DNA of 64,000 nucleotides from the NCBI GenBank assembly GCA_001817215.1, contig MHHX01000019.1, forward strand, positions 16,302-80,301. The letters run 5' to 3'. Of this stretch, positions 35,339 through 37,440 are shown in pieces. How positions within the stretch are numbered: the stretch's first letter is position 1; the number at the start of each line of letters is the position of its first letter. Made by a program: the position numbers and the translations under genes. The DNA is from Candidatus Brennerbacteria bacterium RIFOXYC1_FULL_41_11 (GTDB lineage Bacteria; Patescibacteriota; Minisyncoccia; UBA6257; Brennerbacteraceae). The notes under the pieces were generated by a model. The model saw only the letters and a program-made list of their open reading frames with translations, did no database searches and was not told where the DNA came from.

Positions 35339-35406
35339 GGCCCTATCGTCTAGCCCGGTCTAGTCATGCCAGCGGCAGATCCGCCTTTGGCGGAGACATC
35401 GCCCCT
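35339..35406 (+). other. Degenerate tRNA-Glu-like 5-prime fragment (pseudo-tRNA) fused to a GC-rich hairpin
   Basis: GGCCCTATCGTCTAGCCCGGTCTAG matches the first 25 nt of the downstream tRNA-Glu (GGCGCTATCGTCTAGCCCGGTCCAG) at 22/25, but no anticodon or T arm follows; instead CCGCC-TTT-GGCGG. Confidence 0.4.
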
Positions 35407-35446: not shown

Positions 35447-35521
35447 GGCGCTATCGTCTAGCCCGGTCCAGGACGCTGCCCTCTCACGGCAGAAACACGA
35501 GTTCAAATCTCGTTAGCGCTA
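35447..35521 (+). tRNA. tRNA-Glu (anticodon CTC)
   Basis: Acceptor GGCGCTA/TAGCGCT, D arm GTC-TAGCCCGGTCCAG-GAC (E. coli tRNA-Glu-like), anticodon stem CTGCC/GGCAG with loop CUCUCAC, T arm ACGAG-TTCAAAT-CTCGT. Confidence 0.8.
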
Positions 35522-35605
35522 CATGGTTAAAAATTAGGTGGGCGAGCGGCGAATCCGCCAGCTGGCGCACAAGTCCCGTTAGGGCTACTTGACAAAGAAT
35601 CAGTA

Positions 35606-35940
35606 TTTGCTATAATATAAATACAATTTATATAAAACATCCCACGGAACCTTAGGCGAAGTGGGGAAGTGGAGTCACGATCCATGATGTTGCCTCGCAA
35701 AATCGGGGACGGAAGCTGAACCGTAATTAATCCAGCAAGCGGTGTCACTGTAGATTACAACTGGCGTTTACGCTGAGCGTAGTCGAAGCGCGGAGCCGAC
35801 CAAAGAGCCATGACTTTTAATGGAGTTATGGAATGAGGATGGGACCGCGGGAGGTCTCTTTTTTTATAGTCTCTCGTTCCTTGCTTACTACTTTTGTAGT
35901 AATTGAGGAACGAGAGGTTTTTTGATTCTTCGCGGAGTGA
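35606..35940 (+). ncRNA. Candidate structured non-coding RNA of unknown family: a promoter-like TATAAT followed about 320 nt later by two tandem intrinsic terminators
   Basis: TTGCTATAAT at about 35604-35614. No ORF of 60 aa or more on this strand. Terminator hairpin CCTCTCGTTCC...GGAACGAGAGG + TTTTTT at about 35868-35935. Internal repeats of GAGCGTAG and GTAGTCGAAG. Confidence 0.3.
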
Positions 35941-36105
35941 AGAATCAACCCTGAGCGTAGGTAGCCACGCTTGGCGTGGCGTAGTCGAAGGGTGTTTACC
36001 TTTCGTAGAAGGAGGCGTTGATGAGTAAAATACATCGCGCATTTGGAGGGTCTGGCCCTCACGGTTTTCGTCGGGAAAGATTTGATCAGTCTTTCCCGAT
36101 GTGAT

Positions 36106-36180
36106 GGTCTCTGTAGCTCAATAGTAGAGCGTTGCTCTGTGAAAGCAATGGCTGGGGGTGCAAATCCCCTCAGAGACCCA
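36106..36180 (+). tRNA. tRNA-His (anticodon GTG) with an encoded G-1
   Basis: G-1 before acceptor GTCTCTG/CAGAGAC, discriminator C, D arm GCTC/GAGC, anticodon stem TTGCT/AGCAA with loop CUGUGAA, T arm GGGGG-TGCAAAT-CCCCT. Confidence 0.8.
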
Positions 36181-36305
36181 AAATGCAAACTGCTTTGCAT
36201 TTTATGGGATTTGCAAGCCGGAGTGATATTTAACTTGCGTATGGCAAGTTAAATCACGAGGCGGGATCGCGGCAAAATTTTCGGAAGAAAATTTTAGCTG
36301 TGACC

Positions 36306-36324
36306 AAATCCCCTCAGAGACCCT
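36306..36324 (+). repeat. 19-nt perfect direct repeat of the tRNA-His 3-prime end (CAAATCCCCTCAGAGACCC)
   Basis: Identical to 36160-36178; the two copies sit 146 bp apart, like attL/attR cores. Confidence 0.7.
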
Positions 36325-36519
36325 GGGCTGTGGATGTTTTATTTTTCTGCCGGCTTCGCCCCGTTTTACGGGGCTCGTCAACTTACTCCAGCGGTAAGTT
36401 GTGGCCTGTTCTCTCGCCTCGACGGCCCTTCGACTGCGCTCAGGGACCAAGCCCGTCGGGGTTCCGAGAACCAGAAAAACAAAACATCCACAAATCCTAT
36501 TAAACAAAAAATAAAAGAA

Positions 36520-37440
36520 ATGAGCTACAAAAACAAAAAATTGAAGAAGGTCAGATTTAATCAACTCAAAAGGTCGATCGGGTTGATTAAAATTGCTCTT
36601 TGGAAAAAAATCAAAGTTCTTTTGCCGAAAAGAAAGGAGACAGCCGTGTTGAAACAAACAGTTTTTCTGATGCAGGATTTGAGACTGTTGGCTGAACGAG
36701 TCAGGGAGAATAACAAGAAAATTCAAACCTGGGTTGATAAGTATATTGAGGAATGTATTTTGGTTGGTAAACCGGTACAGATCTTGACTCAGTGGTGTTT
36801 TTCGCTTGACTTTGAGGTAAGGTTGCAAAAACAAGGTGGGAAGTTTGCGCCGACAAAAACAGAGCGAGAACTGGTTTTCAAATGGTTCCCGACTGTTCTG
36901 GAGGTTTTCGAAAAGAGGAATGTGCCAATCAATTGGATTGTTACTTTCAATCGATCCTATCTCGACAGCGGCAGGCTGGAACCAGAGACAGAAAGGGCTT
37001 ATCAGGAGATGGTTCAGGGATTGTTTGATGAGGCTGGTTTATCCAGCAAGATTCTTCTTTGTAATTGGGAAGACGATGTTCTTCTGAAAAAACCGGAGCC
37101 AGATAAAAATGTTCTTGAGAATCTGGGAGAATTTTTGGTTCCAGCCGCACTCCAAATTGTTTTTAATCAACACAAGAGCTGGGCCCTGGGAGAAGCCGGG
37201 CTCAAGCAAGCAGATGAAGAACTGTGGCAGGACGTGAAGTTCCAGATTGCTTGTGAAGCTGAAGAAGGCAGGTTCCTTTGCGATTCGGAAGAATCGCCGT
37301 TGAGTGAAGGCAAGTTCATCCTGGTTCCCTTGGAAGTCGCCGAGAGGTATAATCCAACGTTCTTAATTCTTAATCCTGAATTTGAGGAAAGGATTGCTTC
37401 GTTGTTGCCGCCATATCCTTGGCGTATGACTGAAGAATAA
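36520..37440 (+). CDS. Hypothetical protein, 306 aa, no recognisable motifs
   Basis: Start trimmed to the ATG at 36520 (MSYKNKK). The ORF-track N-terminal extension runs through a GC-rich hairpin region and is unlikely to be coding. A strong terminator follows the stop. Confidence 0.5.
   Translation: MSYKNKKLKKVRFNQLKRSIGLIKIALWKKIKVLLPKRKETAVLKQTVFLMQDLRLLAERVRENNKKIQTWVDKYIEECILVGKPVQILTQWCFSLDFEVRLQKQGGKFAPTKTERELVFKWFPTVLEVFEKRNVPINWIVTFNRSYLDSGRLEPETERAYQEMVQGLFDEAGLSSKILLCNWEDDVLLKKPEPDKNVLENLGEFLVPAALQIVFNQHKSWALGEAGLKQADEELWQDVKFQIACEAEEGRFLCDSEESPLSEGKFILVPLEVAERYNPTFLILNPEFEERIASLLPPYPWRMTEE

Follow-up and report, generated by a model that had tools for sequence, protein, structure and literature searches.

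The tRNA-His gene of Candidatus Brennerbacteria bacterium RIFOXYC1_FULL_41_11 lies, together with the genes for tRNA-Tyr and tRNA-Glu and the element described here, in a 1.3-kb stretch that lacks any long open reading frame (ORF). The region is part of a 64,000-nt stretch of contig MHHX01000019.1 (positions 16,302 to 80,301), here called the window, whose coordinates are used throughout and refer to the + strand unless stated otherwise. An initial annotation of the region had described a promoter, a structured transcript ending in two terminators and a small ORF led by a Shine-Dalgarno (SD) sequence, and had proposed a stand-alone non-coding RNA, possibly associated with an attenuation-controlled peptide. 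The stretch 35589–35925 is instead very probably a promoter followed by a strongly diverged, histidine-specific T-box riboswitch of the short-Stem-I type, i.e., a cis-acting leader, which probably acts by transcription termination on the whole operon. The locus in its entirety is likely best explained as such a T-box gating an operon composed of a micro-ORF, tRNA-His and an enzyme gene. Far less certainty attaches to the specific roles of the first of its two terminator-like hairpins (T1), the micro-ORF and the enzyme than to the identity of the T-box itself.

Identification of a histidine-specific T-box leader

An Rfam scan of the window, proposed as a check in the initial annotation, returned only tRNAs at gathering thresholds, while permissive thresholds produced a sole full-length match for the leader, namely to the T-box family RF00230 (21.8 bits, E = 0.0055, model positions 1–219; gathering score 93 bits). 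The aligned parts are those diagnostic of a T-box, namely CCGUAA (F-box), Stem III, AAUGAGGAUGGGACCGCG (consensus AAUUAGGGUGGUACCGCG) and CUCGUUCCUU. The last of these serves both as antiterminator 3' strand and as 5' arm of the second terminator hairpin (T2), and T2 is therefore the classical T-box terminator. Weak E-value matches to BTnc231, to miRNA families and to RNAI/Leu_leader were dismissed as terminator-like or due to chance. The initial annotation was correct in that the RNA is neither a transfer-messenger RNA, which is excluded by ARAGORN, nor RNase P RNA or signal recognition particle RNA, for which there was no Rfam match.

To place the leader in context, the protein encoded downstream was used as an anchor. 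Its 182 homologues, none of which carries a Pfam domain, gave access to loci from species-representative genomes (30), metagenomes (57) and closer relatives (8), referred to below by L numbers. Leaders at the equivalent operon position are found in related genomes, with a T-box present at this place in 20 non-redundant loci. The leaders of long-Stem-I relatives match RF00230 with 55–77 bits (E = 3e-9 to 5e-15); these matches leave no statistical doubt, yet their scores all fall below the gathering score, and routine annotation therefore misses these T-boxes. The specifier bulge is GAA-CAC in all long-Stem-I relatives (17 of the long type); all leaders use CAC as the specifier, and the tRNA that follows them is tRNA-His(GUG), which in the window is located 430 nt downstream of the specifier. 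Matches to TGGNACCRCG in L005 and L028 were found to be false positives within the micro-ORF, where they represent codons for S-W-N/H-R-A. Literature searches for T-boxes in the Candidate Phyla Radiation (CPR) gave nothing.

The comparative check for covariation also came out in favour of a structured element, and the antiterminator/terminator switch was found to covary three ways in the relatives' leaders. In an alignment of 19 discriminator/terminator regions, pairing reaches 100% in antiterminator helices A1 and A2 and 99.6% in the 12-bp base of the terminator; slid controls gave 40–65% paired cells as compared to ~90% for the structure. The A1 pair between alignment columns 91 and 138 changes from GC to AU in four leaders: column 138 goes from C to U, and in the same four leaders column 91, with which it pairs in A1, and column 175, with which it pairs in the terminator, both go from G to A, a pattern that is the signature of a switch between mutually exclusive helices. 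The distal terminator stem also covaries. In the window, 35872–35882 can pair either with 35835–35852, forming the antiterminator, or with 35905–35916, forming the terminator. Among the same leaders, the basal pair of A2 is G.U in twelve and A-U in seven, and five of the six Stem III pairs exhibit changes on both sides. Purine strings flanking Stem III and a G.U pair at the base of A2 have been described as aminoacyl-sensing features (PMC7583486), and the window matches both. The UGGG of the T-box bulge was dropped as proof of pairing with C73 of tRNA-His, since relatives with UGGA have the same C73 and C73 pairs with G-1 (PMC7778990).

Transcription of the leader would start at approximately position 35623, downstream of a perfect sigma-70 promoter (Table 1), which substantiates the promoter proposed earlier and which is also present at the equivalent place in L088, L089 and L095. 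Two further features of the initial annotation hold, in that no ORF of note is present on the + strand between 35617 and 35925 and pairing is extensive, the whole leader folding better than shuffled sequence (z = -3.2). For the region 35920–36110, the corresponding comparison yields z = -5.1.

Architecture of the short-Stem-I leader

The specifier hairpin of the window, GUGGA-GUCACGA-UCCAU, presents the His codon CAC (35676–35678), followed by a purine, in a 7-nt apical loop. The short-Stem-I sub-clade consists of the window, L095, L088 and L089, with L094 as a partial member. Among the four, the stem exhibits compensatory changes (GUGGA/UCCAU, GUGGA/UCCAC and GCGGA/UCCGC), while the loop GUCACGA is invariant. 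An apical-loop specifier is the defining trait of short Stem I, and the platform of long Stem I is not required of every T-box (PMC7583486). Further downstream, loop GCUG pairs with CAGC to form a pseudoknot. Comparison of the four sequences revealed compensatory changes in L088/L089 in Stem II (GUCCG/CGGAC), Stem IIA (ACGC/GCGU) and the pseudoknot (loop GCC with GGC).

Table 1. Coordinates of the features of the leader, micro-ORF, tRNA-His and enzyme gene in the window.
Feature	Position	Strand	Components	Score, source or remark
Sigma-70 promoter	35589–35616	+	TTGACA 35589–35594; 16-nt spacer; TG-extended TATAAT 35611–35616	12/12 consensus matches
Stem I region, short type	35630–35692	+	conserved AUAUAAA; variable side hairpin 35642–35664; specifier hairpin 35669–35685	
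Stem II, Stem IIA and pseudoknot	35693–35737	+	Stem II CCUCG-CAAAAU-CGGGG; Stem IIA ACGG-AAGCUGAA-CCGU; F-box-like CCGUAA; pseudoknot partner CAGC	RF00230 alignment
Window-specific insertion within the T-box	35738–35799	+	module hairpin gcu-GAGCGUAGUCGAA-agc 35770–35791	absent from L088, L089
Stem III	35802–35833	+	CCAUGAC 35808–35814 / GUUAUGG 35825–35831; purines AAAGAG 5', AA 3'	Rfam alignment
Antiterminator (discriminator)	35835–35882	+	helices A1 and A2 around the T-box bulge	
Helix A1	35835–35839 / 35878–35882		GAGGA with UCCUU	
T-box bulge	35840–35846		UGGGACC, 7 nt	
Helix A2	35847–35852 / 35872–35877		GCGGGA with UCUCGU; basal pair G35847.U35877	
Apical A2 insertion	35853–35871		19 nt	
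T1 hairpin with U-run	35841–35865	+	GGGACC-GCGGGA-GGTCTC 35841–35858; T7/U7 35859–35865	-9.6 kcal/mol, z = -2.1
T2, canonical T-box terminator	35871–35923	+	arms 35871–35891 / 35896–35916; U6 35918–35923	-29.5 kcal/mol, z = -8.6
Window-specific insertion, terminator to SD	35922–35997	+	hairpin 35922–35948; split module copy 35949–35992	absent from L088, L089
Pre-SD motif and SD	35999–36015	+	motif CCUUUCGUAGAAGGAGG; SD GAAGGAGG 36008–36015	
Micro-ORF	36021–36104	+	MSKIHRAFGGSGPHGFRRERFDQSFPM, then stop; ATG 36021; 27 codons; stop TGA 36102–36104; core codons 5–14; CAC 36060–36062	
Post-His hairpin	36069–36101	+	6 nt past the His codon, in the non-conserved micro-ORF tail	-20 kcal/mol, z = -4.9
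tRNA-His(GUG)	36106–36179	+	encoded G-1 36106; body 36107–36179; discriminator C73	ARAGORN; Rfam 68 bits
Conserved protein	36520–37440	+	306 aa from ATG 36520, or 264 aa from SD-led GTG 36646	

The double terminator of the initial annotation is real in that two sites combining a hairpin with a U-run exist, but only the second, T2, is a canonical terminator, with a 5' arm that holds the 3' strands of A2 and A1, while the first, T1, lies inside the antiterminator. The 5' arm of T1 is the tRNA-binding bulge (GGGACC) and its 3' arm is part of the apical A2 insertion. The T1 hairpin, followed by six or seven U residues, occurs in all four short-Stem-I leaders and was not seen in any long-Stem-I relative. 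T1 may thus represent a pause or early-termination site peculiar to the short-Stem-I clade, a role that we infer only.

The segment immediately upstream of the SD may tie the riboswitch to the micro-ORF. CCUUUCGU (35999–36006) can pair with ACGAGAGG (35910–35917) of the terminator 3' arm, a motif UUCCCGUAGAAAGGAGG follows the terminator in most T-box loci, and the helix formed between the pre-SD motif and the terminator arm is 91% paired in 19 leaders. In the window, a G-to-A change in the terminator arm is compensated by a C-to-U change in its pre-SD partner. This pairing hints at a coupling of riboswitch state with translation of the micro-ORF.

Control of the operon in related loci

On the + strand between 35617 and 36733, no promoter-like site was found. 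At least 16 loci without a T-box carry, at the same place, a promoter, a leader peptide of 13–28 aa containing HH, HHH or HSH (for example MMTKAQQLHHRVNNS and MQSKFAQLHSHTANLS, each ending in a stop codon) and nested terminators, which is the layout of a classical histidine attenuator. With the footprint of the stalled ribosome masked, an antiterminator alternative was clear in only two of 14 such His-leader loci. The presence of His-codon leader peptides in the place of the T-box makes it probable that scarcity of charged His-tRNA induces the operon. In L015, a canonical class-II hisS gene (1132–2478; Pfam tRNA-synt_His, E = 2.5e-51) is located immediately upstream of the operon of His leader, micro-ORF, tRNA-His and enzyme gene, which links this operon to histidyl-tRNA metabolism.

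In the T-box-less His leaders (L005–L018 and others) an inner hairpin with U-run is enclosed by an outer hairpin with U-run, an arrangement that echoes the two terminators of the window. In ten loci (L001, L008, L019, L021, L025, L026, L027, L045, L068 and L081) the upstream gene belongs to the Trp_repressor family (YerC/YecD-like; Pfam E = 6e-13 for L008). The encoded C-termini contain two to three consecutive His residues and a tail of the type xxxQxRRGLS directly before the stop codon, after which a terminator hairpin follows; possibly, this His-rich C-terminus represents a third kind of histidine-linked control.

A conserved micro-ORF ending its conservation at a single His codon

The small ORF downstream of the T-box was in part correctly described by the initial annotation: SD and ATG are present, but they are separated by 5 nt rather than 6, the ORF comprises 27 codons (36021–36101) and not 30, and its TGA stops 1 nt, not 10 nt, before the encoded G-1 of tRNA-His. 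The suggestion of an attenuation-controlled peptide likewise stands only in so far as the small ORF is real and attenuation is involved; the peptide is not of the kind in which a run of His codons governs attenuation. A core of the form [HNC]-R-[SA]-[FL]-G-G-x-G-P-H, or its variant SFGGSLGGxGxH, is encoded by an SD-led micro-ORF in 61 of the 62 tRNA-His loci, at most 260 nt upstream of the tRNA, and both an SD and a start codon are present in nearly all loci. The search pattern fixed only positions 1 and 2 of the Gly and His codons, leaving third positions as well as R, S/A and P free. Mean entropy at codon positions 1, 2 and 3 is 0.61, 0.38 and 1.62 bits, respectively, and synonymous codons are used broadly (all four GGN codons for Gly, TCN and AGY for Ser, CGN and AGR for Arg, and six codons for Leu). 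Judged by the aligned sequences, this variation is the pattern of a translated sequence.

The conserved part of the micro-ORF ends precisely with the His codon, for which 55 of 59 sequences use CAC (at a genomic GC content of ~41%). The tail beyond it is non-conserved and ranges from 0 to ~50 residues, and about half of the ORFs have no stop codon before the tRNA and read into it. The His codon specifies residue 14–16 (20 in the variant), and the conserved peptide would therefore be wholly within the exit tunnel when CAC is decoded. A hairpin equivalent to that of the window is found 6–19 nt (mostly 8–12 nt) after the His codon in most loci with enough sequence, whatever the position of the stop codon; G usually predominates in its 5' arm and C in its 3' arm, and a U-run follows it in some tRNA-less loci only. 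A group of loci has only 12 nt between the His codon and the start of the tRNA. No downstream hairpin in its own right was detected in these, where the regions of the Gly and His codons can pair mutually instead. Together, these properties are more readily reconciled with a putative programmed pause or arrest of the ribosome at the His codon than with a matured peptide.

A four-segment attenuator built from the Gly codons, the Pro-His codons and the hairpin arms is suggestive, but it is inconsistent across loci, and no convincing alternative pairing was found. The peptide motif had no family match in sequence searches, and literature searches yielded no paper on it. L039, L065 and L092 possess an extra ORF of ~60–70 codons between the T-box terminator and the micro-ORF, which is Lys/Glu-rich in L039.

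tRNA-His and the downstream enzyme

Of 88 related loci, 62 have the tRNA-His gene immediately before that of the protein, and tRNA-His, the predicted T-box ligand, is at the same time encoded within the transcript that the T-box would regulate. The protein is identical to 'hypothetical protein' entries of metagenome-assembled genomes of Candidatus Brennerbacteria. Its AlphaFold2 model is confident (pLDDT 93), and the predicted fold resembles those of class-I (class-Ic) aminoacyl-tRNA synthetases (aaRSs), TyrRS, cyclodipeptide synthases (CDPSs) and PvcA, i.e., a Rossmann fold without the ATP-binding signature motifs. Sequence identity to the fold neighbours CDPS and PvcA/IsnA does not exceed 16%. 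None of 30 family members matched Pfam at E <= 1 (including CDPS and DIT1_PvcA), and NCBIfam and profile-based PDB sequence searches revealed no relative. The family is an isolated one, with 58 clusters among 1.84 billion proteins and no annotated relative. An enzyme acting on tRNA-His or His-tRNA is suggested by the predicted fold, by the linkage of the gene to tRNA-His and by the His-tRNA sensors that control it.

In many loci (L002, L003, L008, L017, L020, L022, L091 and L093) the ATG of the long form of the protein (MSYKxKK...) lies 2 nt past C73 (CC-AUG-AGU), so that an mRNA with virtually no leader would result from 3' processing of the tRNA; ~40 codons further downstream, those loci have another start that is preceded by an SD.

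Between tRNA-His and the protein gene of the window, several further sequences were observed. The 19-nt 3' end of tRNA-His, CAAATCCCCTCAGAGACCC (36161–36179), is repeated exactly 144 nt downstream (36305–36323). The 125 nt between the two copies are conserved in L095, where the second copy directly precedes the ATG of the protein gene, a junction that mirrors the real tRNA 3' end in other lineages; the repeat has the appearance of an insertion into the 3' end of the tRNA that duplicated its target, or of a processing mimic. A GC-rich structured element of ~165 nt (36329–36492), with a 21-nt closing stem that is 95% complementary, follows between tRNA-His and the protein gene. It has no Rfam match, and analogous long-stem elements with a similar CCAGCGA hairpin loop occupy the same place in L088, L089 and L094.

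A model for regulation by histidyl-tRNA

The proposed course of events starts from uncharged tRNA-His, whose GUG anticodon would pair with the CAC of the apical specifier loop (35676–35678) and whose free CCA end would pair with UGG(G) of the bulge (35840–35843). Binding would stabilise the antiterminator (A1 35835–35839/35878–35882, A2 35847–35852/35872–35877), thereby blocking both T1 and T2, and read-through would allow transcription of the micro-ORF (36021–36104), tRNA-His (36106–36179) and the enzyme gene (36520–37440). Pausing or early termination at T1 may buy time for tRNA capture by a slow-binding short Stem I, and T1 would be suppressed directly once the CCA end of the tRNA occupies the bulge. 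The micro-ORF may then constitute a second, ribosome-dependent checkpoint, passage of which would depend on His-tRNA: the nascent ...R-[SA]-[FL]-G-G-x-G-P sequence, together with the hairpin 6–19 nt downstream, would hold the ribosome with CAC at the decoding centre. In its furthest extension, which is put forward tentatively and with more doubt than confidence, the model holds that the micro-ORF, (tRNA-His) and the enzyme gene form a previously unrecognised His-tRNA system in Parcubacteria, in which the peptide is an arrest sensor at a single CAC codon and the enzyme is a new one that depends on tRNA-His or His-tRNA, all of it gated by a T-box that thereby controls synthesis of its own ligand as well.

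Several observations weigh against this model in one or another of its parts. The leader of the window falls far short of the RF00230 gathering score, those of L088 and L089 do not reach E = 0.01 with RF00230, and the short type is represented by only four leaders. The tRNA-elbow platform of a long Stem I is described as a requirement of transcriptional T-boxes (PMC7583486). The long-type relatives have this platform (AG bulge and distal loop), but the window clade lacks it, its Stem I consisting of a hairpin of 5 bp that may or may not be accompanied by a variable side hairpin, and termination control by such a short Stem I is therefore putative; nor was a kink-turn recognised at the base of Stem I in this clade. 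In the window, ~340 nt of inserted structured sequence separate tRNA-His from the enzyme gene, and co-transcription of the two is consequently not certain there. A T-box inducing the gene of its own ligand would form a positive loop, for which we know of no described precedent. No regulatory output of the putative stall in the micro-ORF is derivable from the structures. Finally, in ten more divergent loci without tRNA-His the micro-ORF lies directly before the protein gene; its association is thus with the protein gene and not with the tRNA, an observation that fits a peptide partner of the enzyme equally well.

Alternative explanations

A strong promoter combined with strong terminators would yield an abundant, discrete terminated RNA, and no Rfam family reaches its gathering score, both of which could be expected if the promoter-to-terminator RNA (~243 or 300 nt) were a trans-acting small RNA gene with an incidental likeness to T-boxes. 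This is extremely improbable, given that all discriminating T-box features are present and the switch covaries, and that the relatives' leaders at the same position match RF00230 with E-values down to 5e-15; furthermore, the substitution of His leader-peptide attenuators at this position elsewhere argues for a cis-regulatory role. Within the T-box reading, it is somewhat doubtful, though a possibility of real weight, that T1 is a functionless by-product of the U-rich apical A2 insertion and that only T2 matters. The T1 hairpin is weak, its 5' arm is already fixed by the T-box bulge, so that a covariation test is impossible, and A2 insertions are frequent in short-Stem-I T-boxes (PMC7583486). 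A role for T1 is favoured by the retention of hairpin and U6–7 in all four short leaders while the rest of the insertion differs, by an additional module that L095 carries after the T1 hairpin, and by the absence of T1 from all long-Stem-I relatives.

As regards the cargo, the micro-ORF might encode a small peptide with a function of its own, be it as substrate, scaffold, subunit or regulator of the enzyme, and belong to a system of peptide and aminoacyl-tRNA resembling those of ribosomally synthesised and post-translationally modified peptides (RiPPs) or of peptide aminoacyl-tRNA ligases (PEARLs), rather than being a cis-acting leader; the hairpin after the ORF would then be the usual stem-loop that sets the ratio of precursor to enzyme. 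This alternative, which we consider rather unlikely but worth retaining, accounts for the company that the micro-ORF keeps with the enzyme gene in the ten loci without tRNA-His, for the conservation of an amino acid sequence and not just of one codon, for the placement of the tRNA gene between micro-ORF and enzyme gene, and for the U-run that the hairpin often carries in loci without the tRNA. It sits poorly with an undefined C-terminus, given tails of variable length and the reading of about half of the ORFs into the tRNA, which is odd for a matured product, with a conserved part so close to the start that it would lie inside the exit tunnel, and with induction at scarcity of His-tRNA, which is ill-suited to a pathway that consumes His-tRNA. 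The enzyme, for its part, might be a non-canonical histidyl-tRNA synthetase replacing HisS, which would explain the T-box control, as aaRS genes represent most T-box targets, the predicted fold is class-I aaRS-like and the gene is tightly linked to tRNA-His. This is very improbable: no HIGH or KMSKS motif is visible in the sequence, the canonical class-II hisS immediately upstream of the same operon in L015 argues against replacement, and PvcA and CDPSs do not activate amino acids with ATP.

Comparison with known T-boxes and leader peptides

T-boxes are regarded mainly as Gram-positive devices for the control of aaRS, biosynthesis and transport genes. The window shares with the transcriptional T-boxes of RF00230 (such as the tyrS/glyQS and hisS leaders of B. 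subtilis) a specifier codon that is matched to the tRNA anticodon, the UGGNACC bulge of 7 nt that separates A1 from A2 and takes up the free NCCA end by base pairing, a Stem III flanked by purines and a G.U pair at the A2 base, a terminator 5' arm that is also the antiterminator 3' strand, and Stem II, the IIA/B pseudoknot and an F-box-like CCGUAA. It differs from them in lacking a long Stem I, the AG bulge and the distal-loop platform, its specifier being located in an apical 7-nt loop, and in the 19-nt insertion on top of A2, which together with the bulge forms an extra hairpin followed by U7. Its host also differs, being a member of the Parcubacteria (CPR), and its cargo is a micro-ORF, the cognate tRNA gene and an uncharacterised enzyme instead of an aaRS, biosynthesis or transporter gene.

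The apical-loop specifier, the reliance on Stem II and the IIA/B pseudoknot, and the A2 insertions are shared with the short or 'ultrashort' Stem I T-boxes of Actinobacteria (ileS). The latter act on translation by sequestering or releasing the SD, according to the account of Sherwood et al. 2015 given in PMC7583486, whereas the window has a strong terminator (-29.5 kcal/mol and U6) and an SD that is located well downstream and is not sequestered. The T-box of the window thus combines a short Stem I with a transcriptional expression platform. What is new is a T-box variant that joins a short Stem I, a terminator platform and a bulge-derived hairpin in a CPR host, and not a new class of non-coding RNA; it is missed by standard Rfam annotation.

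The micro-ORF resembles hisL attenuators and arrest peptides (SecM, TnaC and SpeFL) in being a short SD-led leader ORF upstream of regulated genes with a His codon at a critical position, and it resembles arrest peptides in that its amino acid sequence is itself conserved and short enough for the exit tunnel. Its G-P before the critical codon recalls the RAGP motif of SecM. In contrast to hisL, it has one conserved His codon and no run of them, and no clear alternative antiterminator pairing was found; in contrast to hisL and arrest peptides alike, it is situated downstream of a complete T-box or His attenuator, and stalling on it is putative. The enzyme is set apart from CDPS and PvcA/IsnA by its low sequence identity and by the lack of a sequence-family match, the likeness being one of predicted fold alone.

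The surprising part of the locus is its cargo, which comprises a conserved micro-ORF reminiscent of arrest peptides, the gene for the very tRNA that the riboswitch would sense and an uncharacterised enzyme family with an aaRS-like fold. The operon of micro-ORF, tRNA-His and enzyme is widely conserved in Parcubacteria. Two unrelated His-tRNA sensors, the T-box and the His leader peptides, have been recruited to it, and this dual recruitment marks the PvcA/CDPS-like protein and the micro-ORF as parts of histidyl-tRNA homeostasis in organisms of minimal metabolism, thus offering a testable entry point to an uncharacterised protein family and to a possible new arrest peptide.

Insertions, repeats and neighbouring genes

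When compared to L088 and L089, the window carries an insertion of ~40–60 nt inside the T-box and another of ~75–85 nt between T2 and the SD, which in L088 and L089 is located ~15 nt past the terminator. Both insertions contain a module, CTGAGCGTAGTCGAAG, a first copy of which is located at 35773–35788. Its reappearance in a GC hairpin, as stated in the initial annotation, is borne out by a second copy (35951–35990) that is split by the hairpin 35963–35979. A reverse-complement copy is present at 36428–36443, within the hairpin 36424–36447 (- strand), and five matches with no more than three mismatches were found in the window as opposed to 0.33 expected by chance. L095 possesses an exact copy (435–460) at a different position, inside the A2 loop. 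The closing pairs of N3-GAGCGUAGUCGAA-N3' covary (gcu/agc, ggu/acc and ccu/agg), and the module may represent a small recurrent insertion, e.g., a miniature mobile repeat, or a hairpin for protein binding or tertiary contacts.

The window has a GC content of ~41%, and the genes neighbouring the element are tpiA, pgk, rnhA, rpsB and tsf upstream and rplU, recR, dnaB and cysS downstream. In L091, a bacterial RNase P RNA (2006–2416, - strand) adjoins the T-box operon and scores 95.3 bits as compared to a gathering score of 100, being another CPR RNA below standard thresholds. Upstream of the leader, a 25-nt segment (35339–35363) duplicates the 5' end of the tRNA-Glu gene with 92% identity, 108 nt ahead of the genuine tRNA-Glu (35447–35522), and then gives way to sequence without tRNA character; it represents a fragment of a tRNA gene or what is left of a rearrangement.

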